This document shows positions 1 to 28,096 of a stretch of DNA of 64,000 nt, piece by piece. The stretch covers positions 868,057 through 932,056 of the forward strand of contig JAGTJU010000001.1 of NCBI GenBank assembly GCA_022184915.1, in the 5' to 3' direction. The first letter of the stretch is position 1. Each line of letters opens with the position of its first letter. The notes under the pieces were generated by a model, which searched no databases, was not told the origin of the DNA, and saw only the letters and a program-made list of their open reading frames with translations. Both the position numbers and the translations under genes were made by a program. Origin of the DNA: Myxococcales bacterium (GTDB lineage Bacteria; Myxococcota_A; Polyangia; Fen-1088).

Positions 1-77
1 TCGGTCAGCACCACCGTGATGCGTGCGGCTCGCGCGCGGAGCTCGGCGGGGGTCAGCAACGTGGCGGGGCTCACCAT
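1..77 (-). CDS. Hypothetical protein, 5' fragment only (MVSPATLLTPAELRARAARITVVLT...). The ATG at 77..75 overlaps the TGA of the upstream SDR gene (ATGgTGA).
   Basis: Read by eye on the minus strand; the ORF runs off the window edge; not in the ORF track because it has no stop. Confidence 0.25.
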   Translation of the reverse strand, partial: MVSPATLLTPAELRARAARITVVLT

Positions 78-907
78 GCCGTCCAGCCTCCGTCCACGGA
101 AAGCACGGCGCCGGTCACGTACGAAGCCGCATCACTTGCGAGGAATACGGCGGCTCCGGCGATCTCATCGGGCTCTGCCATGCGGCCAAGCGGCGTTCTC
201 GTAGCGTAACGTTCGACGAAATGGGATGCCTGGCCCTGGGCCACGCCGCCCGGACAGATGACGTTTGCGCGCACGCCGCGCGAGGCCCAATAGGTGGCCA
301 CGAAGCGGGTCAGCATCACCACGCCCCCCTTGCTGGCGGCGTAACCGGCCGATTTGAAGAACGCCTGGGTCCCGTCGGGCCGCTCATAGAGCCGTTGATC
401 GGGCGCCACCAGGCCGTAGGTCGAGCCGATGTTGACGATGCTGCCGCGGCCTCGCCGGGCCATTTCGGCCCCCAGGATCTGGCAGGTGAGGAAGCTGCCC
501 GTGAGGTTGACGTCGAGCTGGGATTGCCAGAGTGCCAGGGGATAGGACTCAAAGCGCGATTGCTCGGCCGCCGCGCCTTCGTCGAAGCGGTCGTTGATCG
601 CGGCGCTGTTCACCAAGATATCGATGCCGTCGAAGGCGTTGAGCGTGCGCACGCGCAGCGCTTCGATCGAGCGGCCTTCGGCCACGTCGAGCCCTGCGCC
701 CACGACGTCAGCCCCCGTGGCTTCGACCAAGGCCGCCGCGAAGGTGCGGGCTTGCTCTTCGTCGAGATCGGCGGCTACCACGCGGGCGCCCGCTCCGGCG
801 AGAGCCGCACAAAACCGCTGACCCAGAAGGCCGCAGGCGCCGGTGACGATCGCCACGCGGCCGTCGAGGGAAAAACGCGCGTTTTCGGGATAGACCTGTC
901 TTGCCAT
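71..907 (-). CDS. Short-chain dehydrogenase/reductase (SDR) family oxidoreductase
   Basis: TGxxxGxG Rossmann motif (VAIVTGACGLLG), NSAA and YxxSK (YAASKGG) catalytic motifs. Start trimmed to MARQVYPEN with a GGAG RBS (rc of 908-920). The longer ORF-track start at 1129 is unlikely. Confidence 0.8.
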   Translation of the reverse strand: MARQVYPENARFSLDGRVAIVTGACGLLGQRFCAALAGAGARVVAADLDEEQARTFAAALVEATGADVVGAGLDVAEGRSIEALRVRTLNAFDGIDILVNSAAINDRFDEGAAAEQSRFESYPLALWQSQLDVNLTGSFLTCQILGAEMARRGRGSIVNIGSTYGLVAPDQRLYERPDGTQAFFKSAGYAASKGGVVMLTRFVATYWASRGVRANVICPGGVAQGQASHFVERYATRTPLGRMAEPDEIAGAAVFLASDAASYVTGAVLSVDGGWTAW

Positions 908-909
908 CC

Positions 910-3241
<2,332 letters not shown>

Positions 3242-3259
3242 AGGGCTCCTTTGGGGCTT

Positions 3260-4120
3260 TCAGCGAACGATGAGAGGGGCGGACGTGAGGTGTGCCGGGG
3301 CGTGTCCGGCAAGCTCGTCACGCAGCATGGCCACCTCTTCGTCGCGCAGGCGCACGAACCAGCGGTCGGCACGGTTCTCGAGGCTCGGCAGGCCCTTGCC
3401 GCGCACGGTATGGGCGATCACCACCTGGGGGCGTCCCGTGGGTATGAGGTTCGTGAAGGTGCGCTCGAGATCGTCGAAGTCATGCCCATCCACCTCGCGC
3501 ACGCTGCACCCGAAAGCCTGAAACTTGGCCGCGAGGGGCTCGAGCGGGATCAGGGCCTCGGTGGCTTCATTGGCTTGAAACCCATTGCGATCGACCACGG
3601 CCACCAGGTTGTCGAGCCCGTGCGCGGCGGCCACCAGGAGGCCCTCCCAGATGCTGCCCTCGTTGAGTTCGCCATCGCCCAAGATCACGAAAACCCGGTT
3701 CGACGTGCCCCGGAGCTTCATGTCGAGCGCCACGCCGATGCCCACGGAGAGCAAGTGACCGAGCGAGCCTGAATGAAACTCGATGCCCGGGATGCTCCGG
3801 TTCGGATGCCAGTACACGTGATCGGTGGGGTCGAGGTGACGCGCGAGCCGCTCCCGCTCGATGAGGCCCAGCTCGGCGAAGGTGCCGTAAAGAGCAGGCA
3901 CATCGTGGCCCTTCGAGAGCAGAAGGTAGTCCCGCCCGGGATCCGTGAGGTTCTGCGGGTCGAGCGCAAGCACACGGCTATAAAGGTGAACCAGCAGGTC
4001 GGCACACGAGAGCGAGGCGCCAATGAAGCATCCACCGCCGCCCGCCATGCCGATGATGTGCTCGCGCACGCGCAGGGCGGTGGCCTGAAGATGGGCCTTG
4101 TCGTACGTCAGAGATCTCAT
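3260..4120 (-). CDS. Transketolase N-terminal (TPP-binding) subunit
   Basis: TPP-binding GDG..NEG motif (VILGDGELNEGSIWEG) and HSGSLGHLLSVGIG. Its start overlaps the stop of the cytidylyltransferase (TGATG). Confidence 0.8.
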   Translation of the reverse strand: MRSLTYDKAHLQATALRVREHIIGMAGGGGCFIGASLSCADLLVHLYSRVLALDPQNLTDPGRDYLLLSKGHDVPALYGTFAELGLIERERLARHLDPTDHVYWHPNRSIPGIEFHSGSLGHLLSVGIGVALDMKLRGTSNRVFVILGDGELNEGSIWEGLLVAAAHGLDNLVAVVDRNGFQANEATEALIPLEPLAAKFQAFGCSVREVDGHDFDDLERTFTNLIPTGRPQVVIAHTVRGKGLPSLENRADRWFVRLRDEEVAMLRDELAGHAPAHLTSAPLIVR

Positions 4121-4929
4121 CAGTCGTCCTCGAAGAGCACGGTCTGGCGCCGGCTCACCGTGCGTAGATCGGTCAAGTGATTGCGGTACCAGTTGACGCC
4201 GGCGAGGTGGGCGTTGATGCGGAACACCTCGGGGTTGTGGGCCACGTGCCGCAGGATGCTGGCCAGCGAAAAGGGCGTCGCGTCGGGCTTGTAGAGGGCC
4301 TCGTAGATCGCGCGAATGAAGTCGTAGTCTTCGGGGTAATCGATCGTGAACCTGTGGGTCATCGAGTAGTCGAGTCCCGTTTCCCAGGCGACGTTGCCGA
4401 CGCGGTAGCGCTCGGGCTGGTCCCAGACGAAGGGGGTCGTGTGCTCGCGCTCGTGCGGGCGCTTGGCCTCGGCGTGGGCCTCTTCGAGCACCGCCATGGG
4501 CAAAACCTCGACGTCGTTACCGTCGGGATAGGTGGCGGGGTGTAGGTTCGAAACGAAGTCGAAGCGATCGTGGTTCGACAAAAAGTGGGACACGACCCGA
4601 TCGATGATGCGGGGATCGATGAGCGGGCAGTCGGAGGGAATCTTCACGACCACCTCGGCCTCGTGCACCCGCCCCGCTTGCACGTGCCGATCGAGAAGAT
4701 CCGTCGGGTGTCCCGAAATACAAGGAACCCCAAGCACGCGCGCCAGCTCCCGGATGGGCTCGTCCTTCGCCTCGAAGGTGGTGGCCACCACCACCTGCTG
4801 CAGCGTCGTTGCGGCGCGCACCCGCTCGAGCATGCGCGCCAGGAGCGGCGCGCCCATGAGGGGCTTGAGCACTTTGCCCGGAAAGCGTGAGGAGCCCACC
4901 CGGGCCTGAACCACGGCCACGACCCTCAT
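4120..4929 (-). CDS. Sugar-acid cytidylyltransferase, CTP_transf_3 family (KdsB/NeuA/SpsF-like)
   Basis: N-terminal motif MRVVAVVQARVGSSRFPGKVLKPL is typical of the SpsF/NeuA/KdsB cytidylyltransferase family. Start trimmed to the ATG overlapping the upstream stop (ATGA) with a GGAG RBS. Confidence 0.7.
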   Translation of the reverse strand: MRVVAVVQARVGSSRFPGKVLKPLMGAPLLARMLERVRAATTLQQVVVATTFEAKDEPIRELARVLGVPCISGHPTDLLDRHVQAGRVHEAEVVVKIPSDCPLIDPRIIDRVVSHFLSNHDRFDFVSNLHPATYPDGNDVEVLPMAVLEEAHAEAKRPHEREHTTPFVWDQPERYRVGNVAWETGLDYSMTHRFTIDYPEDYDFIRAIYEALYKPDATPFSLASILRHVAHNPEVFRINAHLAGVNWYRNHLTDLRTVSRRQTVLFEDD

Positions 4930-5993
4930 GCTGACAGCTCCAGGTTGGCGGTTGCCAGGCCGCTCTGCCACGGCTCGCGGGCCGGGGCTTCGTCCATCAC
5001 CGTGCGACAGACCTGCGCGATGAGCTTCGCCGCACTTCGGTTCTGAACCGGAAGCAGCCGCGCGAGCTCTTCGGGGCGGTAGTGGCTGTGCACCTCTTTG
5101 CCCAAAGCCAGGCCCACGAAGGCGAGCGTGGAGTACTGGCAGACGAGCACCGCGCAGTTGGCCACCATCTGCTCTGCCGAGCCCGTCGTGTAGACCCGGG
5201 CGTGAGGGGCCATGTGCGCGATCTCGCGCTGGGCCCGCTCCCAGTCCTCGTTGGGGTGGAGCTTGAAGATGAGGGGGCGCCCCGCAGCAATGGCAAGGGC
5301 CCGTTCCAAAAAGCGCTTGCGGCTATCGAGCTTCAACGTCTCGCGGGCGTCCGACGTGCACACGAGCACGTAGTCGCGGTGCGGAAAGTCGTTGGCGTGG
5401 TACTCGGCGCAGTCGTCGAAGTTCGGGATGCCGGTGACCACCATCTTGTCGGGATCGGCGCCTCGCCGGGCGAAGAGGTCCTTGTAGCCTTGGCTTGCCA
5501 CACAGAAACGGTCGTAAGCGTTCGACGTGCCCGTCCAGGTGGTTCCCGCCGCCCACCGCGGCACGAAGGGAAACACGCGGCGCGCCCAGTACCAGAAGTT
5601 TTCGGGATCGGTGATCCCCTCCTGCACGGCCACCAGGCGCGAGCGCCTCGCGTTGCGCGGCACGATCACGTCGGAGCAGGTGACCGTGAGATCGTAGGCG
5701 TGCGTGCGGCCTTCGTAGTCCACGGACAGTCCGGCGCGCCTGCAGTAGCGAAGGGCTTCTTTGCGACGGCGCCACCCCAAGATCGTGAACTCGAGCATGC
5801 CGGCCTTGCGGAACCACTCGAGCAGGCCGTCACAGTAGTAGGGCGAGTAGTGCGCCTCCCAGTCCGGAAGCTCCTGCGCGATCTTGTGCATCTGGCGCGT
5901 TTGGTTGAGGGAGCCACAGATGAACAACACGCGGGGCCGGTGCTGCATGCGCCGTCCGGTGGGGGCAGAAGTTGAAGCCACGAAGTCATCCAT
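4926..5993 (-). CDS. Putative polysaccharide biosynthesis transferase, possibly of the KpsS/KpsC-like capsule-synthesis family
   Basis: 355 aa, GT-B-like N-terminus (RVLFICGS). An FKLHPNED segment and a following S/T-rich stretch resemble my memory of KpsS (HHP..). AGAAGGTG RBS before the 5993 ATG. It is translationally coupled (ATGA) to the downstream cytidylyltransferase. Family assignment is tentative. Confidence 0.35.
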   Translation of the reverse strand: MDDFVASTSAPTGRRMQHRPRVLFICGSLNQTRQMHKIAQELPDWEAHYSPYYCDGLLEWFRKAGMLEFTILGWRRRKEALRYCRRAGLSVDYEGRTHAYDLTVTCSDVIVPRNARRSRLVAVQEGITDPENFWYWARRVFPFVPRWAAGTTWTGTSNAYDRFCVASQGYKDLFARRGADPDKMVVTGIPNFDDCAEYHANDFPHRDYVLVCTSDARETLKLDSRKRFLERALAIAAGRPLIFKLHPNEDWERAQREIAHMAPHARVYTTGSAEQMVANCAVLVCQYSTLAFVGLALGKEVHSHYRPEELARLLPVQNRSAAKLIAQVCRTVMDEAPAREPWQSGLATANLELSA

Positions 5994-5996
5994 CGG

Positions 5997-7184
5997 TCAC
6001 CTTCTTTTCACGAAGTGAAGCGCCGCGGCCGCGACGATCCAGAAAACTTCTTTCGAACGTTTTGTGAACGCGAGCGCCGTCGCCGCGCCCGGGGCGCCAG
6101 GAACACCCAGAAGCTCGAGGAGCACGAACGAGCCCATCTCCTGGGCGCCGAGTCCGGCAGGGAGAAAGAAGGCCGCCGCGCGAATCGTCGAAACGAGAGA
6201 CTCCAGGAGAAGGGCGCTCGAGAAGGAGAGGGACACACCCAAAAGCCGCAGGATGACGTAGGTCTCGAGAGCCTCCATCAGCCACTGGCCGAGCGTGAAC
6301 ACCAGGCCGAACCCACAGGTGGTGTTGCCGCCCACGCCGAAGAAGCGAGAGAAGCTTCCCGCCGTGGCGTCGAACATGTGGGCCTTGTCACTGAGCCAAC
6401 GCCGAAAGCGCGGTACCGGGACCCGCGTGAGCGCACCGTGCACGAGGCGCAGGGCCAACCCGCCCCTCAGGGTGTGCAGCAGCCACATGCCCGCCAGCAG
6501 GAGGCCTGCGCCGAGCAGAGGCACGGAGCGCCACACCCAATGCGCGGGCCCGGTCAAGGTGGCAGCCGTTTCGCTCCAGGTGGTGTAGGCCAAGGCGAAC
6601 GCGAGCAGGATGTAAAGGCCCTCGGCCTGCACGATGAAGGCCTTCGTCAACGCCACGCTGGCCGTGCCTTCGGCGTAGGGAACGCCCAGGCGATGGCGCA
6701 GCCAGTAGGGCTTGCAGGTTTCTGCCAGCACAGGGCCTCCCGGCACGGCGACGACGACGGCCTCGGCCGCCACACGCAAGCGCAGCAGAGGAAAAAAGCG
6801 CGTGACGTAGCCGAGCTGGAACAAGGTGACTTGCCACGCCGCCGTGGCGCACACCATCGAACCCGCGAAGGGCAAAAGCACGAGAGGCCAGGCGTACCCG
6901 ATGTTGCCAAGCCGGGTGAGTGCGGTGGACCAGTCGCCGCGCGCCGCCAGGATCACGACGGCCGCTACGGCCACGCCCGCCATCAGCCAGCGCCAGGCCC
7001 GAATACGCGTGGCGGGAGCCGCAGGAGCGAGGGCGTCGGCTTCTAGCGATGCGGAATCATCCGCGCGGGAGGCGAGCGCGGTCTCGGGGCCGAGAGGCTG
7101 AAGGGTTGAAAGGGTCACGCGGTCAATGAGTAGGGAAGAGAGGAAGCCACGGAGCCCCATGCCGGCTGCCGCTGCGCCAGCCAA
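5997..7184 (-). CDS. Polytopic membrane protein, lysyl-phosphatidylglycerol-synthase-TM / flippase-like (UPF0104) family
   Basis: Multiple hydrophobic helices. This family is common in glycolipid and polysaccharide loci. The N-terminal about 60 aa of the ORF are low-complexity, so the true start may be internal. Confidence 0.45.
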   Translation of the reverse strand: MAGAAAAGMGLRGFLSSLLIDRVTLSTLQPLGPETALASRADDSASLEADALAPAAPATRIRAWRWLMAGVAVAAVVILAARGDWSTALTRLGNIGYAWPLVLLPFAGSMVCATAAWQVTLFQLGYVTRFFPLLRLRVAAEAVVVAVPGGPVLAETCKPYWLRHRLGVPYAEGTASVALTKAFIVQAEGLYILLAFALAYTTWSETAATLTGPAHWVWRSVPLLGAGLLLAGMWLLHTLRGGLALRLVHGALTRVPVPRFRRWLSDKAHMFDATAGSFSRFFGVGGNTTCGFGLVFTLGQWLMEALETYVILRLLGVSLSFSSALLLESLVSTIRAAAFFLPAGLGAQEMGSFVLLELLGVPGAPGAATALAFTKRSKEVFWIVAAAALHFVKRR

Positions 7185-7296: not shown

Positions 7297-7328
7297 TCGT
7301 CGTGGCCTGGTAGGTGAGTGCGTGCCTC

Positions 7329-8516
7329 ATGCGCTCCAACACTTCCCTCACGGTCGTCGACGTCTCGAGTTTCTTCTCGACGTCGTGTGGTGGCATCAAG
7401 CGGTATTATCAGGAGAAGGCCCGGCATCTGCCGGCCCTGGGTGTGACGTGCCACTTCGTGGTGCCGGGTGAGTCCGATCGCGACGAGCCCTTCTTTGGAG
7501 GTTGGCTGCATCACGTGGCGGGACCGTTGCAGCCAGGCAACGCGGCTTACCGCCGCTTTAGCTTCAGCTCGCGGCTGCCCCAGCTTTTGCGCTCACTTGC
7601 GCCCGATGTCGTGGAGGTGGGCAGCCACTATCTTCTGCCGACGATGGTGCGCCGGGCGTTTGCGGCCTCGCCCCGCAGGCCGCGGCTGGTGGGGTTCTTT
7701 CACAGCCATCCCGAGCAGATCGTGCAAAACGTGACGGCACACTTGCCAAGGCGTCTCGGCACCGGGTGGCTCGGGCGTCGTGCGTGGTCGTTCTTTGCGC
7801 GCCAACACAAGTCTTACGCGTCGACCTTCGTGGCGTCGCGGCACATCGAAGCGCAGCTCGTGTCGCGACGGGTGCCCGGGGTGCTGCGGGTGGGGCTGGG
7901 CGTCGACGTACAAACCTTCCGCCCGCGCCCAAAAGCCGAAGGGAGCCCCAATGTGATCTACGCGGGGCGCTTCACGATCGACAAGGAGCTGCCGTTGCTG
8001 CTCGCGGCCTTCGATCAGGTCCACACGCGCACGGGGGCGGGCTTGACCCTCGTGGGAGATGGGCCGTTGAAGGGGCGGGTTCGCCAGCACGCGGCGTCGC
8101 GGCCGTGGATGCGGGTGCTCGACTATGTCGCCTCCGTGGACGACATGGCGCGCTTGTTGAGCGAGAGCACCGCCGTGGTCGTGCCCAGCCAGACGGAGAC
8201 CTTCTCCTTTACCACCGCGGAGGCTTTGGCCAGTGGCGTGCCCGTGGTGGGGGCCGATCGCGGGGCGGTGCGCGAGCTCGTGGAAGACAGCGGGGGGGGC
8301 GTGCTCTTCAAGGCGGGGGAGGCGCGCGGCTTGGCGCACGCCCTCGAGGGGCTGCTGGCAGCGCCCGCCGGGGCGCGGACCGCGATGGGGGCCGCAGGGC
8401 GTGCCCACATCGTCAAGGACTTCACGTGGCCGGCGGTGTGTGAGCGCCTGCGAGCGGCCTATGACGATGTGATTCACCCAGGTTCGAGCCCTGCCGGGGC
8501 CTCTGCTGCCCCCTGA
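7329..8516 (+). CDS. Glycosyltransferase family 4 (GT-B, retaining)
   Basis: C-terminal GT4 signature (AEALASGVPVVGADRGAVRELVEDSGGGVLF; E-x7-E). Start taken at ATG 7329; an alternative GTG is at 7314. Confidence 0.75.
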   Translation: MRSNTSLTVVDVSSFFSTSCGGIKRYYQEKARHLPALGVTCHFVVPGESDRDEPFFGGWLHHVAGPLQPGNAAYRRFSFSSRLPQLLRSLAPDVVEVGSHYLLPTMVRRAFAASPRRPRLVGFFHSHPEQIVQNVTAHLPRRLGTGWLGRRAWSFFARQHKSYASTFVASRHIEAQLVSRRVPGVLRVGLGVDVQTFRPRPKAEGSPNVIYAGRFTIDKELPLLLAAFDQVHTRTGAGLTLVGDGPLKGRVRQHAASRPWMRVLDYVASVDDMARLLSESTAVVVPSQTETFSFTTAEALASGVPVVGADRGAVRELVEDSGGGVLFKAGEARGLAHALEGLLAAPAGARTAMGAAGRAHIVKDFTWPAVCERLRAAYDDVIHPGSSPAGASAAP

Positions 8517-8672
8517 GGGTGCTTTGTGGGCCGCGTGCGCGCAGCTCCCGTCACAAACCTGCAGAGCTGCCACGGAGTCGTGGCCCATTCGTCAAAAATG
8601 CCGCGTTTCTTGTCGCAAAAAGGCGACCTCGCCCACCGTGTTCAGCCTGTAATTGAGGGGGAGAGATCTTCC

Positions 8673-10130
8673 ATGGTGTCGTTGCCCTTACGAAACGAAA
8701 GCACTTTGGCGCTCGCCTCCCCGGCGGCGCCCGGTTGGCCCCATCACATCGGCATCTTGAATGACTATGTGCGCATCCCGTATGCGAACGGGTCGTCGTT
8801 TGCATCGCAGCGCCTTTACCGGGAGTTCCGTCGGCGTGGGCATACGGTGACGGTGCTTGGCCCGCGTGACCCCGCGGCTGGGCCAGGTGATCTGCCCGCC
8901 CGCAGCTTGATGCTGCCCAGCCTTCCGCTCGAGAATCATCCGGGCGTCTATCTGCCCATGCCTTCGAGGGCCTCGCTCAAGGCCGCCCGACAGCAACACT
9001 TCGACCTACTTCTCTGTCAGACCGGCTCGGCCTTCACGGAGCTGGCCGTGTGGCTGCGCAAGACGGAGCGTGTGCCGTTTTTGTGCGTGAACACGATCCA
9101 CCTCCCCAGCGTTTACAACGTGGTGTTGCCCGATGGTTGGCATGACGTGCCTCGGGTGCGCGCGCTTTTCGAGCGTTTCGTGATCCCGCGGCTCGAGCGG
9201 CAGGCCGCACGGATCTACAACCGCAGTGATGGGCTCATCGTGCTGTCGCGGGGGCTCGAGATGTACTGGCGTGCCCGCGGGGTGACTGCGCCCATCTTCG
9301 TGATTCCCCGCAGCGTCGATGTGGACATGTTTGCCGAGCGGGGCCAGTCGGATCCCTTCGACCCCCGCGCCACCCCGGGCGGGCGCCTGCTGGTGTTGTG
9401 TCGCCACACGCGCGAAAAGGGGCTGGCGCGGCTCCTTCAGATCTTCGCCACGGAGATCGCGCCGCACAGTCCCGACGCCACCTTGACCCTGGTAGGTGAC
9501 GGACCCGATCACGATGCCTTCAAGGCGTTGGCCAAGTCACTGAAGATCGATGATCGCACGTTTTTCCCCGGCGAGTGCAGCGCGGCCTCTGCGCCGGCCT
9601 ACTACCGACATGCGGATCTCTTCGTGTACACGTCCTTGTCGGAGACCTACGGTCAGGTGGTGAGTGAAGCCGCCTTCTGTGGGCTTCCGGCGGTGGCCCT
9701 GGCAGACGACATGGGCGTCAGCCACCAGATCGAACACGAGCGGACGGGTATTCTCATCACGCCCACGCCCGAGCCCGCCGCCGATCGCGCGTTCGGAGAG
9801 GCCGTGTGTCACCTGCTCGCGAACCCCTTGCGCCGCCGCGCCTTTGCGGAAAGCGCCCGTCGCAGCGCCTTCGATCGTTGTGGCCCTGCCCAGGCGGTCG
9901 AACGGCACTACGCGGCCTTCGAGGCAGCCCGCAGCCACTGTCAGGCGCAGGAAACGCGCGACGAGCCTCTGGGGACGTGGCGAGCCCTGTCACGCTGGGC
10001 GGGGCTTCATGCCCTCGCGTACCTGACCGGGCTCCTGCGGGCGCCCGCGGTGGTGAACCGTCACAAGCGTCAAGCGCCGCCCTGGGACGAGGGGATCGAG
10101 GGGGCGCTTGGGCCCCTGTGCGCACCCTGA
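8673..10130 (+). CDS. Glycosyltransferase family 4
   Basis: GT4 C-terminal signature (SEAAFCGLPAVALADDMGVSHQIEHERTGILI). The ATG at 8673 is preceded by a GGGGGAGAG RBS. The 3' end overlaps the convergent MMPL gene by 61 nt. Confidence 0.75.
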   Translation: MVSLPLRNESTLALASPAAPGWPHHIGILNDYVRIPYANGSSFASQRLYREFRRRGHTVTVLGPRDPAAGPGDLPARSLMLPSLPLENHPGVYLPMPSRASLKAARQQHFDLLLCQTGSAFTELAVWLRKTERVPFLCVNTIHLPSVYNVVLPDGWHDVPRVRALFERFVIPRLERQAARIYNRSDGLIVLSRGLEMYWRARGVTAPIFVIPRSVDVDMFAERGQSDPFDPRATPGGRLLVLCRHTREKGLARLLQIFATEIAPHSPDATLTLVGDGPDHDAFKALAKSLKIDDRTFFPGECSAASAPAYYRHADLFVYTSLSETYGQVVSEAAFCGLPAVALADDMGVSHQIEHERTGILITPTPEPAADRAFGEAVCHLLANPLRRRAFAESARRSAFDRCGPAQAVERHYAAFEAARSHCQAQETRDEPLGTWRALSRWAGLHALAYLTGLLRAPAVVNRHKRQAPPWDEGIEGALGPLCAP

Positions 10131-12604
10131 GCGGAGGGTACGAGCCGGAGCAGGGCGGGCAAGAACACGAGGTTGGCCACGAGCGCACTGCCGAGCGCCA
10201 TGAGGGCCAAGGAGCCCAAAGAAGCGATGCCGGGGTTCTCGGCCGCGATCAGGCTTCCGAAGGCTGCCAAGGTGGTCAGCGTGGAGCCTGCGATCGCGAA
10301 GGCCGCCGTATGCCGGGCCGTGCGCGGCCCTTCGGCAGGCAACCACACGAGGTAGATGGCGCCGTCCACGCCGAGGCCGAAGGCGAGGGGCAGCACGATG
10401 AGGTTGTAGAGGTTCACCTTCACCCCAAAGGCGACGGCGATCCCCAAGGTGAGCACCATGGCCATCGCGAGAGGCGTGAGCACGAGCAACGTGCGCCGCA
10501 GCGAGCGCCCCATGAGCCATGTGCCCAGCGCAAGGCCCGCAAACGCCAGGCCCAAGATGAGGGGGGTGTCCGCGGCGAGCCCAGGAACCACCTCGCCCAC
10601 CTGCGCAGCCGGTGAGGCAAAGACAACGTGAGGAAAGGCCTGGCGCCAGCGCGCCATCTGCGAGGCCAGCCGCTGCATCTGGCGGGCGTCCGCGCCGCTG
10701 AGGTCGGTGTAGATGATGCCAAGCGAGCCCACCTGTCCGTTCCGTTCGACCAGCCAGTCCGCCACCCAGGGAGGCGCTTGCTCCACGGAAAAGGGCTGGT
10801 TTACGGCCACAAGGGGCGCCCATGTCGTCGTGAAGGCGCGTTGCTGCTCATCGCTCATGAACGGCACGGCCTCCTCGAGCGCAACACGTAGCCGCGCCAG
10901 CGCTGCGAGGCGGGCGCTTTGGTCGCGGGGAATGAAGCTCTCCGCCGTCACGAGCCAGGGCTCATCGGGGTTCGCCACCCCTTCGGGGCCCTGGGCCCGC
11001 AGCCGCTCCGCCACGGAGCGCATCTCGTCCCGGGAGCGCGCCAGCACGAACACCGGCACACGGGTGGTGCCGTGAAGGGCCTTGCCCCAGGGCAGGCCGT
11101 GGCTGACGCGGGAGGGGCGCAAGCGACGAAAGTCGTACTCGAACCCGATGCGCGTGGCCGCAAGACCCCCGGCGATCGTCACGACGAGGGCCACGGCCAC
11201 CACGATGCGGGCGCGGCGTTTCGTGCCCCGCACGCACGCGTCGAGCCAGCTGAAGACCCCGAGCCCCCGCAGGCGAAAGCGAAGAGGGCGTTCGGACCAC
11301 ACCCGATCCGTGGCGAAGACGAGCGGGGGCATGACCACCAGGAAGGCGGTCATGGAGATCACCACACCAAGCCCCGCCATGAGGCCCATCTGCGAAAAGC
11401 CACGGAAGCGTGCGGCGCTCAGGGCGGCGAATCCACACGCCGTCGTGGCGGTGGCGGTGACCATGGCGTTGCCCACGTGCACGAGCGTTTCGGTCAGGGC
11501 CGAAGCCAGGGGCTCGCCGCCCGCGCGGCGCTGGCTGTAATGAATGAAGAGGTGGATGCCGTAATCGATCCCCAGCCCCGCCAGCAGGGACAGCCCAAAG
11601 GCGCTGAGCAGGTTGAGCTGCGGATGCACAAGGCCGATGAGCCCCAGCGTCCACGCGATGCCTGCCACCAACGGCACGAGCAGCAACCACAGAATCCTCA
11701 ACGAGCGAAACTGCACCAACATCAGCAGCACGATGAGCCCCGCGCCCAGCAAGGTGGTGCGGCGGAGATCGTTCGACACGATCTGTTTTTCCATCGGGGC
11801 GTTGCGATAGGGGCCGCTCACCTCCAAACGAAGGCCGGAGGGCGCGTGGGGCGGCCTCAGCTTGGCGAACAGCGCCTCGGCCCGCTGGCTCATCGCCGTG
11901 GCGAAGCCCAGGTTGTCCGGATCCCCTCGCAGCGACGCTTCCACCGCGCACACCTGCCCATCGGGTGAACAGAGCGTGCCGGCCGGCGGCTTGCTCGTGC
12001 CGGTCGGTGCCGCATCCGCGGACGGGGCGGTGCTGTCCGCCCCCAAAAGGCCCAGCATCGCCTTGACGTTCGCGTCGTCGCGGAACGCCGCCCGTACCTC
12101 GGCCGCATCGGGCAAGGGCGGGCGCGTGTCGAGCGTGACACACATGGGGTTGGCTTCGCAGCGTTCCCACGTCAGCCGTTCCTGCACGCGCGTGGCGAAG
12201 CCATCGAGGGTCTCGGGCGGAAGAAAGAGCAAGCGCCGCTCGAGAAAGAAGCGGGGATCGCGTTTGGCCACGGCCCATCGTGTCTCGGGCCAGGCACGCA
12301 GTTCCTCGGCGAGGCGTTCGGCCAGGCGCATGTTGAGCGCGGGATCGCTCGAGGCGACCACGAGATACAGTGAGGCCGTGCTGCGCACCCGCTGTTTGAG
12401 CGTGGCGATCGCTTCCTGTGAAGGGCTCTCTGCCGGCAATAGTGCGGTGAGCGACGGATCGATGACGATGCGCCGGGCCGAAAAGACCCCTGCCGCGACC
12501 AGCACGCTCCACAGTGCCAAGAAGGCGAGGGGGCGGCGCTGCGCGCTTTTGACGTAGGCGGTTGCGAGGCGGCGCCAGGAAAATCGAAAGGTCACGGGCG
12601 GCAA
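10070..12604 (-). CDS. MMPL/RND-superfamily exporter (HpnN-like membrane transporter)
   Basis: 844 aa with two hydrophobic 6-TM-like bundles separated by periplasmic domains. Overall layout matches MMPL-family RND exporters. Confidence 0.65.
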   Translation of the reverse strand: MPPVTFRFSWRRLATAYVKSAQRRPLAFLALWSVLVAAGVFSARRIVIDPSLTALLPAESPSQEAIATLKQRVRSTASLYLVVASSDPALNMRLAERLAEELRAWPETRWAVAKRDPRFFLERRLLFLPPETLDGFATRVQERLTWERCEANPMCVTLDTRPPLPDAAEVRAAFRDDANVKAMLGLLGADSTAPSADAAPTGTSKPPAGTLCSPDGQVCAVEASLRGDPDNLGFATAMSQRAEALFAKLRPPHAPSGLRLEVSGPYRNAPMEKQIVSNDLRRTTLLGAGLIVLLMLVQFRSLRILWLLLVPLVAGIAWTLGLIGLVHPQLNLLSAFGLSLLAGLGIDYGIHLFIHYSQRRAGGEPLASALTETLVHVGNAMVTATATTACGFAALSAARFRGFSQMGLMAGLGVVISMTAFLVVMPPLVFATDRVWSERPLRFRLRGLGVFSWLDACVRGTKRRARIVVAVALVVTIAGGLAATRIGFEYDFRRLRPSRVSHGLPWGKALHGTTRVPVFVLARSRDEMRSVAERLRAQGPEGVANPDEPWLVTAESFIPRDQSARLAALARLRVALEEAVPFMSDEQQRAFTTTWAPLVAVNQPFSVEQAPPWVADWLVERNGQVGSLGIIYTDLSGADARQMQRLASQMARWRQAFPHVVFASPAAQVGEVVPGLAADTPLILGLAFAGLALGTWLMGRSLRRTLLVLTPLAMAMVLTLGIAVAFGVKVNLYNLIVLPLAFGLGVDGAIYLVWLPAEGPRTARHTAAFAIAGSTLTTLAAFGSLIAAENPGIASLGSLALMALGSALVANLVFLPALLRLVPSAQGAHRGPSAPSIPSSQGGA

Positions 12605-12730
12605 GAGCAGCGCACCTGCAGGGCAGGGTCAACGGCGTACTGGAAACTCTTTCGTGGCAATTGTGACGAGTTCGCAGCACTCGTGAGGCCACGGCGCACG
12701 GTGCACGTTCGCGTGCCAGGATGCGCGCGC

Positions 12731-13675
12731 ATGATTCCCGCAACGGCCCACTTCGTCTGGCTGGGATCCTGGTTTCCTTGGTTCAACGTGCTGGCCATCC
12801 GCTCCGCGCTCGAGCGGGGGGGCTTTTCGCGCGTGGTGTTGCACCACGATGAGGCGCTCGCGGCGTCGGCCTTGGGCCCCCTGCTTGCGGACCCGCGGGT
12901 GCACTTTCGTCCCATCGATCTCGAGGCGCTGTGTGCCGGGGCGGGCGTGGCCCCGGCGCCCTTCGCCGCGCTCATGTCCGAGCTCACCGCGCCGAGCGCG
13001 CGATCGAACGTGCTGCGTTGCCTGGCCCTGGCGGCCGAGGGGGGCGTTTACCTCGACACCGACACCGTGACCGTCAAGAGCCTCGACGATCTGCGCGCGT
13101 CCGGCGGCGCGTTCTGCGGACAGGAGCGTGTGGCGCGGCCGCTTCGCTGGATACAGAAGCGTCGCGCGGCCGACCAGCTGAAGTCGTGGGCCCTTCTGGG
13201 TTTGCGGCAAGCTTTTCGCCTGTGGCCGCGCGGCTACTTGCATTTTCGCATGGTCGAAGGGCTCTATCCTCTGGCGGTGAACAACGCTGTATTGGGCTGC
13301 GCCGCTCGTCACCCGTTCATGCTGGAGCTGCTCGCGCGCATGGTGAAGGTGCCACCCGCGCGACGGCGCGTGCGTTTTGCGCTGGGCACTCATCTGCTGC
13401 AGCGGCATGTGGCCGACTACGCGGGCGCCGGTCTCGTGGTGTATCCGCCAGAGTACTTTTACCCGTTGGCCCCCGAGATCGCCGACCACTGGTTTCGGCA
13501 TCACGCGCGCCACGACCTCGATCAGGTGTTGTCGCCGCAAACACGGATCGTGCATTGGTACGGTTCGACCCACCGGCGGCGTACCATGGTGAGGTTGGCC
13601 CCGGACTATGTATTGGCGAACGCGCGCCGCCAAATGTTGAGCCAGCTGGCCGCGCCCTTCGTGACCGAAGCCTGA
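12731..13675 (+). CDS. Glycosyltransferase with DXD motif, GT32 / Gly_transf_sug / capsule-synthesis-like
   Basis: SNVLRCLALAAEGGVYLDTDTVTV matches the DXD sugar-binding region of OCH1/GT32-type transferases. Start trimmed to MIPATAHFVWLG. Confidence 0.6.
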   Translation: MIPATAHFVWLGSWFPWFNVLAIRSALERGGFSRVVLHHDEALAASALGPLLADPRVHFRPIDLEALCAGAGVAPAPFAALMSELTAPSARSNVLRCLALAAEGGVYLDTDTVTVKSLDDLRASGGAFCGQERVARPLRWIQKRRAADQLKSWALLGLRQAFRLWPRGYLHFRMVEGLYPLAVNNAVLGCAARHPFMLELLARMVKVPPARRRVRFALGTHLLQRHVADYAGAGLVVYPPEYFYPLAPEIADHWFRHHARHDLDQVLSPQTRIVHWYGSTHRRRTMVRLAPDYVLANARRQMLSQLAAPFVTEA

Positions 13676-13701
13676 GCGCAGCCCTGCGCGCATGATCCCC
13701 G

Positions 13702-14550
13702 TCAGTGAAGCGCCACCGCAGGCCCGTCAGCGGCCAGCTCGACGCGCAGCTCGCCAAGCGGTGCGTTCGTGACCAGTGCCAGCGGCGTGTGTTCCGCGTT
13801 GTCCGACAGCCACAGCGTGATCGTGCGCGGCTTGCGCAGCGTCGAAGGGCGTCCCTGCCAGTCGATGGGTGCTGCCGCGAGCTCGTAGCGCAGGGCCGTG
13901 CGGGGGCCCGTGGCCAGCTTGATCGTCTCGGCCCGTGGGGGCGCAGCCGTCACGCTCCACAGCGCGCGGCCATCGAGCACCGGGGCGGTCCAGGGCTCCC
14001 GTTGGGGGCCGCGGGTGCGCAGCGCCAGCAGATATCCAAAGGGGTCGTACGTCGCCGCGCCCGCGTTCAGCGTGGCCCAGCTCTCGGGTTTTTTGCTGTG
14101 CAGGCGGTGCGTGCTCACCACGCCCGGGGCGCTTTGTGCGGCGTCGTCGCGGATCACGGCGCTGCCGGTGTCCCGTTCGACGGTCCACGCCCGCGCCAGC
14201 GCCGTCTGCGGATCGAAGGACAGCGAGAACTTGCTGCGGGTGCCAAAGCCCAGGAACGAGCCCGAGCCGAACCCCTCACCTGCCCACAGCGGCGCAGGGG
14301 ACGTCTCTGCCTTGACGAGCAGCGTGACTTCACCCACCTGTCCAGCCAGGGAGTGGCGAATCTGGAAGTGGAGGCGTTCGGGGAAGCGCAGCATCGGGGG
14401 CCCTTCGCTTAGTGTGGCGACCGGGGGGGCGTCAACCGAGGCCGGCGCAAGGCGTGGCGTGGTGGTGGCGCAGGCGGCGAGCATCGCCGCGGCCGCGCCG
14501 GGACCCAGAAGCGCGTAGAGGCCGCTTCGCTGACGAGAGAGACGTGCCAT
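13702..14550 (-). CDS. DUF3108-like lipoprotein
   Basis: Signal peptide with lipobox (MARLSRQRSGLYALLGPGAAAAMLAAC). The globular C-terminal 250 aa resemble the DUF3108 family. The 658-aa ORF-track extension upstream (14551..15678) is low-complexity P/A/R-rich and overlaps the start of the opposite-strand sulfatase-like gene (14702..17509), so it was trimmed. Confidence 0.5.
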   Translation of the reverse strand: MARLSRQRSGLYALLGPGAAAAMLAACATTTPRLAPASVDAPPVATLSEGPPMLRFPERLHFQIRHSLAGQVGEVTLLVKAETSPAPLWAGEGFGSGSFLGFGTRSKFSLSFDPQTALARAWTVERDTGSAVIRDDAAQSAPGVVSTHRLHSKKPESWATLNAGAATYDPFGYLLALRTRGPQREPWTAPVLDGRALWSVTAAPPRAETIKLATGPRTALRYELAAAPIDWQGRPSTLRKPRTITLWLSDNAEHTPLALVTNAPLGELRVELAADGPAVALH

Positions 14551-14701
14551 GAGTGTTGGACACCCAGAGTGCCCCCGCGATTCAGCCTTGCACAGGAAAA
14601 GCAGGAGCACCCCGGGCCGGGGGGCCGCGCGCGCGGCTCCGAGCCGCGCAAGTGGCTGCTTCTCCTGGTCAATTCGTGGCGCTCCTGGTAGCTCTTCGCT
14701 C

Positions 14702-17509: not shown

Positions 17510-17527
17510 GTCTCGAAGGAGCCCCCC

Positions 17528-18085
17528 TTGTACCGCCCTGAACGCTGGGAATACCGCCTGACCTTGACCGACGTGGAGCGGGGCTTGAATGCCGACCGCA
17601 CCGTGGTGGTGGGACGCCACCCGTCCGAGACCACGGAGCATCTGGCTCTGCGCGTGCTTGCGTTTTGCCTGGTGTACGAAGAAGGGCTCAGCTTCGGGCC
17701 CGGCGTGTGCGTGGGGGATGCCCCGGATCTCATGGCCAACGACCTGACCGGCCACCTCAGTCTGTGGGTGGGCTGTGGCGACGTGTCCGCCGACCTGGCG
17801 AAGAAAGTGGTGCAACACAACCGCGACGCCAAAGCGCACATCGTCTTCGATGGCGAAGAGCGCTACGCGGCGTTCACGGAGAAGGTGCGCCACTGGCCGA
17901 AGTTGCCGCGCAACTGGGGCAACCTCACGGCCTGGCTGCCCCCGCCGAGCGTGCTTGCGTACCTCAAGGAGATGGAGACCCTGCGCCAGCGCTGGATCGT
18001 GACCCTTGCGGGCGGGCACCTCTACCTCGAAGCCGACGGTGTGGTCTTGGAAGGGCCCGTGCAGTCCTGGGTGGCCCCCACCTGA
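17528..18085 (+). CDS. yaeQ: YaeQ family protein
   Basis: Clear similarity to E. coli YaeQ (HPSETTEHLALRVLAF.., DAPDLMANDLTGHLSLWV). Confidence 0.8.
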   Translation: MYRPERWEYRLTLTDVERGLNADRTVVVGRHPSETTEHLALRVLAFCLVYEEGLSFGPGVCVGDAPDLMANDLTGHLSLWVGCGDVSADLAKKVVQHNRDAKAHIVFDGEERYAAFTEKVRHWPKLPRNWGNLTAWLPPPSVLAYLKEMETLRQRWIVTLAGGHLYLEADGVVLEGPVQSWVAPT

Positions 18086-18095
18086 AGGCCCGCGG

Positions 18096-18869
18096 TCAAT
18101 TGGCGTCGGTGGCGCCCGCGTCGGTGGCGCCCGCATCGGTGGGAGCCCCGCCATCAGGCAGGCTCGCCTCGGTGGTGGTGAGCCGCTGCCGAAAGTAGTC
18201 CTTGTCGCTCCACTTGTCCCAGCCGAGGGTGGGCAAAGACACGCTCGAGTCCGTGCGGGAGCCAATGAGCCGGCCAAAGGCGCCATCGATCGGCAAGCTG
18301 CCCATGTCGGTGACGGAGGCAAAGCCCACGGCCTGGTTCGGATCGAAGCCCACGGCGTAGTAGTGGCCGGGTCGCAAGAGGATCTGGAGCGGGCCCGCGC
18401 TCACGTAGGCCGGGCACGCCACGGTGTCGACCTGCAAGGTAAAGAGCGTGGTGAAAGGCGCCTGCTTCGAGGGCGCTTCGGCTACCGCCAGGGTCACCCG
18501 GGTGTTGGGCAGCGTAGGGTTGAGGAAGATTTCGACGCCCGTGAGCCAGCGCGGGCGGGTGACTTCGTAGATGTTGAGCCGCGCCAGGGCGGAGGCGTTT
18601 TTGGCGGGGGCCGCGTTGGGGCCGAACTCGTCGGGCACCCCGGCGTCACTGCCCCCGTCGCGCGCGGCCAGGAGGTCGCAGACGGAGGGGGCACCGGCCT
18701 CGATCGCCGCATCAACCGCCGCATCGGGCGTCGCCTCCCCCCCGCCCTGGCAAGCGACGGCCCCAAGGGGCACGAGCGCGAGCACGAGCGCCACCGTCTG
18801 CGCCCGTGTACCCAGGGCTACGCCCAGGGCCCGAGAGCGCGTGGGGAAAGACTGTGAACGGAACGTCAT
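18096..18869 (-). CDS. Secreted lipoprotein, hypothetical; C-terminal (DAGAT)n repeat
   Basis: Lipobox ALVPLGAVAC. C-terminus encoded by a 15-nt tandem repeat at 18100-18140. Start at MTFRS chosen to avoid overlap with the divergent TBDR gene; the ORF-track start is at 18947. Confidence 0.45.
   Translation of the reverse strand: MTFRSQSFPTRSRALGVALGTRAQTVALVLALVPLGAVACQGGGEATPDAAVDAAIEAGAPSVCDLLAARDGGSDAGVPDEFGPNAAPAKNASALARLNIYEVTRPRWLTGVEIFLNPTLPNTRVTLAVAEAPSKQAPFTTLFTLQVDTVACPAYVSAGPLQILLRPGHYYAVGFDPNQAVGFASVTDMGSLPIDGAFGRLIGSRTDSSVSLPTLGWDKWSDKDYFRQRLTTTEASLPDGGAPTDAGATDAGATDAN
18100..18140. repeat. 15-nt tandem repeat (GTCGGTGGCGCCCGC, about 2.7 copies) encoding the (DAGAT)n C-terminus
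   Basis: Seen directly. Confidence 0.6.
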
Positions 18870-18895
18870 GGAGTTGTTGCCCGGACGGTGAGCTG

Positions 18896-28068: not shown

Positions 28069-28096
28069 GGCCAGGCTCGGATGATCTTCAGAAGTG

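Follow-up and report, generated by a model that had tools for sequence, protein, structure and literature searches.

A conserved operon of a Myxococcales bacterium couples a putative CMP-amino-ulosonate pathway to a GT-B protein family and an MprF-type flippase-like protein

INTRODUCTION

How is a cytidine monophosphate (CMP)-activated sugar made by a gene cassette in which the aldolase-type synthase normal for such pathways seems to be missing? This question is raised by a minus-strand operon at the left end of a 64,000-nt stretch of a Myxococcales genome (assembly GCA_022184915.1, contig JAGTJU010000001.1, positions 868,057 to 932,056). The whole stretch, with a G+C content of ~67%, is called the window here, and all position numbers refer to it. 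A first-pass annotation made from the sequence alone described six genes at this end, encoding a cytidylyltransferase, two transketolase (TK)-like subunits, an aminotransferase, a short-chain dehydrogenase/reductase (SDR), and a 355-amino-acid (aa) protein, referred to below as X355. It proposed ketol transfer of two carbons as the source of an amino or keto sugar, which would then be activated as a CMP-sugar and handed on by X355 in the manner of KpsS and KpsC. The cassette is an uncharacterized variant of the CMP-ulosonate pathways, coupled to a transferase family without a Pfam model and to a flippase-like membrane protein. As to its function, we lean, with some reserve, toward a sequence-derived reading in which the operon would make a CMP-amino-ulosonate, X355 would transfer this sugar to a membrane lipid, and the flippase-like protein would flip the product.

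RESULTS AND DISCUSSION

The operon continues past the six-gene cassette at both ends

All six genes were recovered as co-directional, coupled open reading frames (ORFs) on the minus strand, and their families were assigned with hidden Markov models (HMMs). In the order of transcription, the window encodes an HpnL-like integral membrane protein of the MprF-type, flippase-like PF03706 family (5997 to 7184; LPG_synthase_TM, 72.5 bits with a cut-off of 33.4), X355 (4926 to 5993; GT-B fold, no match in a Pfam scan), a CMP-ulosonate-synthetase-type cytidylyltransferase of 269 aa (4120 to 4929; PF02348, CTP_transf_3), a 286-aa TK-like subunit with the thiamine diphosphate (ThDP)-binding domain (TK-N; 3260 to 4120; PF00456, Transketolase_N, 89 bits), and a 320-aa TK-like subunit with the pyrimidine-binding and C-terminal domains (TK-C; 2279 to 3241; PF02779 and PF02780). 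These are followed by a class-III, HemL-like aminotransferase of 458 aa that depends on pyridoxal phosphate (910 to 2286; PF00202, Aminotran_3, 169 bits), a classical SDR of 278 aa (71 to 907; PF13561, 164 bits, and PF00106, 128 bits), and the first 25 codons of a gene for a KdsC-type HAD phosphatase (1 to 77), which runs past the left window edge. X355 is identical to KA712_03615, a "hypothetical protein" of a Myxococcales metagenome-assembled genome (MAG), and a 6.8-kb Logan contig that is identical to the window sequence terminates within the aminotransferase gene.

The gene junctions, read directly from the sequence, are tight. The PF03706 gene stops 3 nt ahead of the X355 ATG, X355 and the cytidylyltransferase gene overlap in ATGA, and the cytidylyltransferase and TK-N genes overlap in TGATG. 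Between TK-N and the GTG start of TK-C, there are 18 nt that include a Shine-Dalgarno sequence (AAAGGAG), while the junction of TK-C with the aminotransferase gene reads ATGGCTGA and that of the aminotransferase with the SDR gene reads TGAggATG. No terminator-like sites were found on the coding strand of the operon. X355 may start either at M1 (5993) or at M16 (5948); for the cytidylyltransferase, whose longest ORF begins at 4971, the probable start is the ATG at 4929 that overlaps the X355 stop. The TGATG and ATGA overlaps were described correctly in the first-pass annotation. The ATGgTGA overlap listed with them is real as well, but it lies at 71 to 77, where ATGGTGA combines the SDR stop with the ATG (77 to 75) of the HAD gene and thus joins the cassette to a seventh gene. 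The proposed unit of six is therefore sound in its genes but not complete, as the HAD gene and the PF03706 gene are both coupled to it. The six are genes 2 to 7 of an operon that has at least eight genes in the window and 9 or 10 in its relatives.

Related loci indicate what lies beyond the left edge. In the nearest relative, locus L083, the proteins from X355 to the SDR are 66 to 73% identical to those of the window, the flippase-like protein is 52% identical, and the flanking genes match. The L083 operon consists of PF03706, X355, cytidylyltransferase, TK-N, TK-C, class-III aminotransferase, SDR, HAD phosphatase, a NeuB-type synthase, and FA_hydroxylase, and L081 has the same arrangement. 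The 25-codon peptide of the window (MVSPATLLTPAELRARAARITVVLT) is in register with the N termini of the HAD proteins encoded after the SDR in relatives. Four of its five best short-BLAST matches are these N termini, each singly nonsignificant, and the HAD start position and its overlap with the SDR stop are identical to those in L083. The L083 HAD protein scores 117 bits with the KdsC family model TIGR01670, above the cut-off of 107, and the best NCBIfam match of the HAD enzyme is a KDN-9-P phosphatase model (134 bits).

Across 84 related loci, NeuB is found downstream of the SDR in 41, the HAD phosphatase in 37, and FA_hydroxylase in 29; many of the loci without these genes are interrupted by contig ends. 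The cassette NeuB matches PF03102 with 248 bits, and its identity to the L083 protein is 63 to 74% in loci with the main cassette and 53 to 60% in variant operons (those of Poribacteria and locus L024). It is 300 aa long and covers positions 1 to 278 of the 329-position NeuB model, so that the C-terminal domain appears to be absent. Its nearest solved structure is SpsE (144 bits). The final operon gene in the relatives encodes an OlsE-like lipid hydroxylase. Because the operons of the relatives carry NeuB, an aldolase-type synthase probably belongs to the pathway, and the operon of this genome most likely continues, judging from synteny, into the HAD gene and a NeuB-type synthase gene just off the window. 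The apparent lack of such a synthase, which had left the TK-like pair as the only carbon-carbon-bond enzyme, is most likely an effect of the window boundary cutting the operon.

In four loci of Melioribacter and Rosettibacter (L029, L032, L057, and L058), NeuB is separated from the lipid hydroxylase gene by a gene for a secreted protein of ~650 aa (at ~15.4 to 17.7 kb of each locus). By eye, the protein resembles a glycoside hydrolase, and the other lineages have no gene at this place.

The gene order is conserved across phyla

One genome per GTDB species was scanned for X355. At least 592 loci encode X355, and the best 80 of these were examined. Neighborhood comparison found the six genes in the order X355, cytidylyltransferase, TK-N, TK-C, class-III aminotransferase, and SDR in ~34 of the 80, with protein identities of 50 to 70%. 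These loci belong to Bacteroidota (including Ignavibacteria, Chlorobia/Chlorobiales, and Kapaibacteria), Acidobacteriota, Nitrospirota, and Myxococcota, the last including cultured Sorangium. This recurrence is far beyond chance. In the set of 84 related loci, the SDR lies downstream of the aminotransferase in 50. A literature search found nothing that joins transketolase, cytidylyltransferase, glutamate-1-semialdehyde (GSA) aminotransferase, and NeuB or nonulosonic acids.

The sugar enzymes point to a CMP-amino-ulosonic acid

The cytidylyltransferase matches PF02348 over positions 1 to 207 of 217 (101.2 bits; cut-off, 22.6). This places it in the ulosonic-acid family and not among the hexose-1-phosphate nucleotidyltransferases, in agreement with the first-pass annotation. 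Matches to equivalog models are partial, with 39 to 67 bits for KdsB (cut-offs, 155 to 281) and 33 bits for PseF (cut-off, 206). The nearest structure is the uncharacterized 6OEW (141 bits), and KdsB structures score ~36 bits. From its family, we infer that the enzyme makes the CMP-glycoside of an ulosonic acid. The aminotransferase has its best NCBIfam match in the HemL-like model PRK06209 (NF004856; 379 bits, under the cut-off of 486). Its nearest structures are GSA aminomutases (203 bits), and sugar C-6′ and aminopentol aminotransferases score 145 to 151 bits. By family, the SDR would first oxidize a hydroxyl of the sugar to a carbonyl, and the class-III aminotransferase would then aminate the oxidized ulosonate.

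A precedent for such a sequence of steps is the pathway (KdnB, KdnA, KdsB, and WaaA) to the 8-amino derivative (Kdo8N) of 3-deoxy-d-manno-octulosonate (Kdo). Here, the free ulosonate is oxidized and aminated before CMP activation and then added to lipid A. KdnA of Shewanella is a DegT-type aminotransferase. In Shewanella oneidensis, the Kdo 8-oxidase KdnB, an iron-dependent alcohol dehydrogenase (Fe-ADH), acts on C8 of Kdo (PMC5125639). The conversion of Kdo to Kdo8N is direct, with the aminotransferase step before CMP activation and incorporation (PMC4402001). Similarly, a dehydrogenase and an aminotransferase are encoded near the CMP-synthetase in the window. However, the window pair consists of an SDR and a class-III enzyme in place of the KdnB and KdnA families, and the operon has a dedicated NeuB and phosphatase instead of KdsA and KdsC, X355 instead of the GT30 enzyme WaaA, and a coupled flippase-like protein.

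The combination of NeuB, HAD-IIIA phosphatase, and PF02348 enzyme in one operon is shared with pathways of the Kdn/sialic-acid type, such as that for KDN in Bacteroides. Unlike in these, the scores fall under the equivalog cut-offs, NeuB has 300 aa, the cytidylyltransferase is of the 6OEW type, and the operon has extra aminotransferase, SDR, and TK-like steps. In Bacillus subtilis, the putative cytidylyltransferase SpsF is required for legionaminic acid transfer (PMC7439481). The sps genes resemble the cassette in that SpsE is the structure closest to the cassette NeuB, and they differ from it in their target and in the UDP-sugar dehydratase, acetyltransferase, and hydrolase genes, of which the cassette has none.

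A dehydrogenase, an aminotransferase, and a PF02348 enzyme recur wherever sugar genes stand beside X355, although the families from which they are drawn vary by lineage. The main cassette pairs an SDR with a class-III aminotransferase, and L024 pairs an SDR with a DegT enzyme. The operons of Poribacteria combine GFO and SDR dehydrogenases with a PseF-like cytidylyltransferase, HAD phosphatase, and NeuB, and one locus also has a class-III aminotransferase. The Chlorobiaceae operon consists of PF03706, X355, a PseF-like cytidylyltransferase, an Fe-ADH, which matches the KdnB step by family, and a DegT aminotransferase, with no NeuB. The cytidylyltransferase beside X355 is itself exchanged between the 6OEW-like and PseF-like subfamilies, which indicates that its linkage to X355 is functional and goes beyond mere inheritance. 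X355 stays constant while each component around it is replaced by a nonorthologous one, and this pattern makes a strong contextual argument for a CMP-activated amino-ulosonic acid as the substrate of X355.

The GFO/IDH/MocA oxidoreductase of the Poribacteria variants was seen in L019, L020, L022, L033, L038, L041, L055, and L067. In these operons, a PAP2 phosphatase gene lies beside X355, and TK-like genes are absent. The Chlorobiaceae operon is represented by L087:8937-14196 (Chlorobaculum parvum CP001099) and L088, with a divergent long-chain acyl-CoA-ligase-like gene upstream.

Among the 120 best matches of X355, orthologs with 70 to 85% identity are present in cultured Chlorobiaceae and in many Chlorobiaceae MAGs. 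Chlorobium limicola is the source of an aminoglycosphingolipid that has been described (Jensen 1991, as cited in PMC11762602). The X355 operon of the Chlorobiaceae is a candidate locus for this lipid. Its sugar is reportedly neuraminic acid; our literature search found nothing on a Chlorobium sphingolipid with neuraminic acid.

The TK-like pair has lost the ketol-binding histidines

TK-N is closest in structure to the split-chain transketolase 6YAK (173 bits), and TK-C is closest to 6YAJ (153 bits), with DXS close behind; TK-C also obtains similar scores from TK and DXS models. The pair was aligned with E. coli TktA and 6YAK/6YAJ, using 15 cassette proteins (the window and 14 relatives). The residues that bind ThDP and its metal are kept (H66, H100, G114, D155, N185, E411, and H473). 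However, H26 and H261 (E. coli numbering), the histidines that contact the C1 hydroxyl of the donor, are both Phe in 15 of 15 cassette proteins. Relative to 6YAK, GHPGGSLS has become CFIGASLS and EWHG has become RWFV. At the phosphate and acceptor site, only R358 is kept: H461 is Val, D469 is Asn, R520 is Ala or Thr, and S385 is lost. The kept and replaced residues follow this pattern in all 15 aligned proteins.

As both ketol-binding histidines are replaced, classical two-carbon ketol transfer, the route by which the sugar was first thought to be built, is doubtful. The pair is a ThDP enzyme whose pocket is more hydrophobic and has no phosphate site, and so not a classical transketolase; the annotation "transketolase" is probably wrong. 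Tentatively, its step may be a carboligation of the pyruvate type, with a hydroxyethyl group added to a sugar carbonyl, or else some other accessory modification. TK-like genes are kept in ~36 to 40 loci, and in two Myxococcota loci, a diverged TK pair has moved to the operon end. The loci of Melioribacter and Rosettibacter have no TK-like genes and keep the remaining cassette, so that these genes may be dispensable for the core pathway.

These results bear on the initial model, in which an amino or keto sugar arises by ketol transfer without an aldolase-type synthase and is transferred by a KpsS/KpsC-like enzyme. Although the presence of TK-like genes and their retention in so many loci speak for it, the model is contradicted by the operon structure of the relatives, which includes NeuB and a KdsC-type phosphatase, and is further opposed by the two Phe replacements, by the lineages that dispense with the TK genes, and by the failure of PF05159 to match X355 (see below). 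We consider it hardly credible. An analogy with the aminoshikimate route to rifamycin (RifL/K/M with the split transketolase Rif15A/B) was also rejected, given the noncanonical TK-like site and a synthase of the NeuB type and not of the DAHP type.

X355 is joined to a flippase-like protein and to lipid genes

In the window, as in 16 related loci representing four phyla, X355 is immediately preceded on its own strand by the PF03706 gene. The related loci comprise Chlorobia, other Bacteroidota, Acidobacteriota, Myxococcota, and one Deltaproteobacteria MAG. The same arrangement is found in Chlorobaculum parvum and on a contig with the Chlorobium phaeobacteroides protein. In addition, the two proteins are fused in frame and at full length (690 to 713 aa) in at least four representatives of 50%-identity clusters (P0242, P0246, P0248, and P0387), and P0114 is an additional fusion. 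An apparent fusion in L014 was rejected as an artifact of ORF calling, as it consists of two ORFs in different frames.

Two more X355 fusions, P0251 (551 aa) and P0249 (637 aa), are either real or gene-calling artifacts. In one of them, the C-terminal region resembles FA_desaturase (27.5 bits, slightly under the cut-off), and the other has an N-terminal fragment of a class-III aminotransferase.

The arrangement recalls MprF, which combines a lysyl-phosphatidylglycerol synthase with a PF03706 domain. In both cases, PF03706 is N-terminal to or upstream of a cytoplasmic headgroup synthase, and an amine is, by prediction, added to a lipid. The synthases are different: X355 is a GT-B module that presumably uses a CMP-sugar, whereas MprF has an aminoacyl-tRNA-dependent synthase of the GNAT fold. 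In line with this difference, X355 has no match to the C-terminal domain of the lysyl-phosphatidylglycerol synthase.

In other phyla, X355 is found among genes for lipid synthesis. Its clusters in Planctomycetota (Phycisphaerae and relatives) have the order FAAL-ACP-oxoamine synthase, ABC-2 ATPase, ABC-2 permease, X355, and a 378-aa GNAT protein, with an HpnA-like reductase of the epimerase family nearby. The oxoamine synthase is Spt/BioF-like, scoring 353 bits with bioF and 265 to 296 bits with serine palmitoyltransferase models. From its gene content, this looks like a self-contained cluster for a ceramide-like lipid. In Desulfobacterota, X355 adjoins genes for a reductase, a GNAT protein, and a type I polyketide synthase (PKS), and the locus may encode a PKS-derived, sphingolipid-like pathway. 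Both phyla have been reported as likely sphingolipid producers (PMC11334938). Together, the adjacency and fusions with PF03706, the ceramide-like contexts, and the OlsE-like hydroxylase argue that X355 acts on a membrane lipid.

The FAAL, ACP, and oxoamine synthase domains form one protein of ~1,120 aa in L002, L009, L015, L027, L040, L049, L059, L076, and other Planctomycetota loci (e.g., L059:4548-7913). The Desulfobacterota PKS exceeds 2,400 aa (NMO/ER, KS, AT, ACP, and KR domains; L066:13335-20942, L070, and L073) and runs out of the locus.

By gene type, the oxoamine synthase, GNAT protein, and epimerase-family reductase of the Planctomycetota correspond to the bacterial ceramide genes (Spt, GNAT ceramide synthase, and epimerase-type reductase), and bacterial genes for ceramide synthesis likewise have flippase and transport genes of their own as neighbors (PMC11324152). 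In the ceramide (di)phosphoglycerate pathway of Caulobacter, a cytidylyltransferase activates the headgroup (PMC13228409). The headgroup chemistry and the transferase family of that pathway are different from those considered here. A link to hopanoids, suggested by the HpnL-, HpnA-, and HpnN-like names, was rejected because the scores are far under the cut-offs (84 versus a cut-off of 196 and 108 versus one of 368). Most of the host phyla are not known to produce hopanoids.

The lipid contexts also help to weigh a surface-glycan pathway, in which X355 would be a functional analog of WaaA or KpsS that adds a CMP-(amino)ulosonic acid to the core or lipid A of lipopolysaccharide (LPS), to a capsule primer, or to some other polysaccharide, while the PF03706 protein handles a polyprenyl- or lipid-linked intermediate. 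Such a role would fit the PF02348, NeuB, and KdsC-type genes, which are typical of sugar pathways for LPS and capsules, the glycosyltransferase (GT4) genes near the operon in the window, and the fact that Kdo8N, the closest chemical analog, is a sugar of the LPS inner core (PMC4402001). However, the neighborhood in the window holds no Wzx/Wzy, KpsMT-DE, or O-antigen genes, and X355 occurs in ceramide-like lipid clusters without sugar genes and in fusions with an MprF-type flippase domain. In addition, X355 is 50 to 73% identical across phyla, which is unusually high for a surface-glycan transferase. We regard this pathway as unlikely, though it deserves to be kept in mind.

X355 has a GT-B fold and a probable site for a cytidine nucleotide

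X355 has more than 4,800 homologs across phyla, with identities of 55 to 73%, and clustering of the family at 50% identity gave 793 representatives (E ≤ 0.001). In 34 homologs, D108, E125, D129, R217, E218, and the segment K244 to E249 are invariant. This segment (K244, L245, H246, P247, N248, and E249; KLHPNE) lies within the FKLHPNED stretch in which the first-pass annotation had recognized an HP motif. The N-terminal domain bears a family-specific aromatic and basic segment (DPENFWYWARRVFPFVPRW). An AlphaFold2 model has a GT-B fold (pLDDT, 89; pTM, 0.86). Its top Foldseek matches in the PDB are UDP-GlcNAc and UDP-ManNAc3NAcA 2-epimerases (including NeuC), TagF, and the TagF-like Bcs3-CMP complex. 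The best of these, among the 2-epimerases and TagF-like proteins, have a probability of 1.0, a TM score of ~0.5, and an identity of 9 to 15%.

Profile matches within the 34 members are marginal and involve Epimerase_2 (PF02350) in 27, the TagF-like Glyphos_transf (PF04464) in 12, and MGDG_synth in 10. The best PF02350 match is weak (4e-5), and the window protein itself has none. A search of PDB sequences with the family profile returned a single weak match, the TagF-like Cps3D, over the C-terminal motif that corresponds to LITDYSS. X355 thus has its best fold and weak HMM matches in the TagF-like CDP-glycerol phosphotransferases and the UDP-GlcNAc 2-epimerases, yet it reaches no family threshold and differs from them in its N-terminal segment.

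No relationship to the β-Kdo transferases KpsS and KpsC was detected. PF05159 matches none of the 34 family members at E ≤ 10, nor the window protein at E ≤ 0.01. The HP motif is common to many GT-B families and is therefore not diagnostic for KpsS/KpsC. Beside the operon, there are no kpsMT/kpsDE export genes and no kpsFU genes; the neighbors encode PF03706, GT4, MMPL, DUF3108, and TonB-dependent receptor proteins. X355 and KpsS/KpsC would share the use of a CMP-ulosonate, a lipid acceptor, and an HP motif in a GT-B/Rossmann-type domain, but they have no detectable sequence relation and other structural neighbors. The likeness to KpsS/KpsC is therefore abandoned, while a role of X355 as a CMP-sugar transferase is plausible. 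Given a GT-B fold near TagF and Bcs3-CMP, the weak Cps3D match, and the invariant HP motif, X355 is probably a GT-B enzyme whose HP motif belongs to a site for a cytidine nucleotide.

The fold matches raise two other possibilities. Some database records name X355 homologs "2-epimerase", and X355 could be a NeuC/LegG-like nucleotide-sugar hydrolase or 2-epimerase that frees the aldose for NeuB; the operon would then be a nonulosonic-acid pathway complete in itself, with the transferase encoded elsewhere. The epimerases, including NeuC, at the top of the Foldseek list, the weak PF02350 matches of 27 members, and a motif correspondence with E. coli WecB (TGIPNFD/TGNTVID, TSDARET/TGHRRES, and KLHPNE/PVHLNPN) are in line with this role. 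However, hhalign gave a probability of only 0.3% for the X355 profile against the single WecB sequence, a setup too insensitive to decide homology. From the KdsC-type phosphatase, it follows that the NeuB substrate is phosphorylated, and a hydrolyzing epimerase would not yield such a substrate. Chlorobiaceae operons, moreover, have X355 but no NeuB. The strongest objections are the contexts in Planctomycetota and Desulfobacterota without any sugar genes and the fusion to a flippase-like membrane domain of 300 residues, which would be odd for a soluble precursor enzyme. We judge this role improbable.

Alternatively, X355 could be a TagF-like phosphotransferase that takes a CDP-activated alcohol or acid and places a phospho-headgroup on a lipid, comparable to the proposed role of CDP-glycerate in ceramide phosphoglycerate synthesis in Caulobacter, where the sphingolipid pathway employs the cytidylyltransferase CpgD (PMC13228409). 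The best fold matches include TagF and TagF-like polymerases, which also provide the only PDB profile match, and PF04464 touches 12 of the 34 members; however, every TagF match is marginal (E, 0.008 to 0.06). The operon also holds NeuB and a KdsC-type phosphatase, which removes phosphate. Furthermore, the cytidylyltransferase belongs to PF02348, whose characterized members, as far as is known, make CMP-ulosonates. A phosphotransferase of this kind appears quite improbable to us.

Proposed pathway

The preferred reading, in which a CMP-amino-ulosonate is transferred by X355 to a membrane lipid and then flipped, can be set out as follows. Judging from family and synteny, NeuB would join phosphoenolpyruvate to a phosphorylated aldose, and dephosphorylation by the KdsC-type enzyme would give the free 3-deoxy-2-ulosonic acid. 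Following the logic of the conversion of Kdo to Kdo8N, the SDR would oxidize one hydroxyl, which the aminotransferase would turn into an amine, and the PF02348 enzyme would form the CMP-sugar. X355, as a peripheral GT-B enzyme, would then use its nucleotide-phosphate-binding HP motif to put the amino-ulosonate on a membrane lipid at the cytoplasmic face. The PF03706 protein beside it or fused to it would flip the product, in an MprF-like pairing of synthase and flippase that is suggested by gene fusion and context. A membrane lipid, ceramide-like or of another kind, is the probable acceptor, and the product would bear both a carboxylate and an amine.

Several points weigh against this proposal. 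The whole case is built on sequence, fold, and gene context. The best fold matches and the weak HMM matches of X355 are UDP-GlcNAc 2-epimerases, and D108, E125, and D129 sit like the catalytic residues of 2-epimerases, so that a hydrolase or epimerase role is compatible with the sequence. No single locus joins the sugar cassette to ceramide-like genes, X355 being the sole link between them, and within 28 kb, the window lacks Spt and ceramide genes. NeuB lies outside the window, its presence in this genome following from synteny and the 25-codon HAD fragment. Finally, the TK-like enzyme receives no step in the proposed pathway.

A bolder version may be entertained as a tentative possibility. 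X355 and PF03706 could form an unrecognized, MprF-like two-module machine, widespread in environmental bacteria, that makes "ganglioside-like" zwitterionic lipids with a Kdo8N-, neuraminic-, or amino-Kdn-like sugar on ceramide-like or other lipids. It would supply the genetic basis of the Chlorobium aminoglycosphingolipid of 1991, and the histidine-less TK-like enzyme would carry out a new ThDP-dependent sugar modification.

Neighboring genes in the window

Two genes for GT4 glycosyltransferases, assigned by their GT4 Pfam domains, lie on the plus strand, divergent from the operon (7314 to 8516 and 8526 to 10130). A syntenic GT4 pair is present in L083 and the same is seen in L084 only, i.e., in the closest relatives. 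The two enzymes may act on the same lipid as the operon. The best NCBIfam match of the first is the GlcNAc-phosphatidylglycerol synthase model NF053787, with 152 bits against a cut-off of 480. More loosely associated is a minus-strand gene for an MMPL/RND-family transporter (10070 to 12604; PF03176, 95 bits). MMPL genes near the operon are also found in L081 and L083, where they are arranged differently.

Farther along the window, four minus-strand ORFs have no Pfam match: 12629 to 13693 (354 aa), 15848 to 18322 (824 aa), 22246 to 23979 (577 aa), and 24058 to 25170 (370 aa). The same region encodes a DUF3108 protein (13702 to 15678), a TonB-dependent receptor (18806 to 22183), and a 972-aa protein with DUF4215 repeats (25195 to 28113).

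Implications

The locus holds a caution for scanning work, as the oddity that first drew attention to it, a CMP-sugar cassette without an aldolase, was most likely produced by a window boundary.

The X355 family occurs in Bacteroidota, including Chlorobia and Ignavibacteria, and in Acidobacteriota, Nitrospirota, Myxococcota, Planctomycetota, Poribacteria, and Desulfobacterota. If the proposed pathway is correct, its thousands of members annotated as "hypothetical protein" would gain a function, namely, the flippase-coupled attachment of a doubly charged sugar acid to lipids. The family would also provide a gene marker for lipid biomarker studies, and the 30-year-old aminoglycosphingolipid of Chlorobium would become genetically testable. 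Attention would also be drawn to a ThDP enzyme that goes by the name "transketolase" but almost certainly has another activity. MprF is linked to the charge of the outer surface and to resistance to antimicrobial peptides. Kdo8N has likewise been linked to outer-membrane charge and antimicrobial-peptide resistance (PMC4402001). On the same condition, the operon would represent a new pathway for lipid headgroups that bears on both of these properties.

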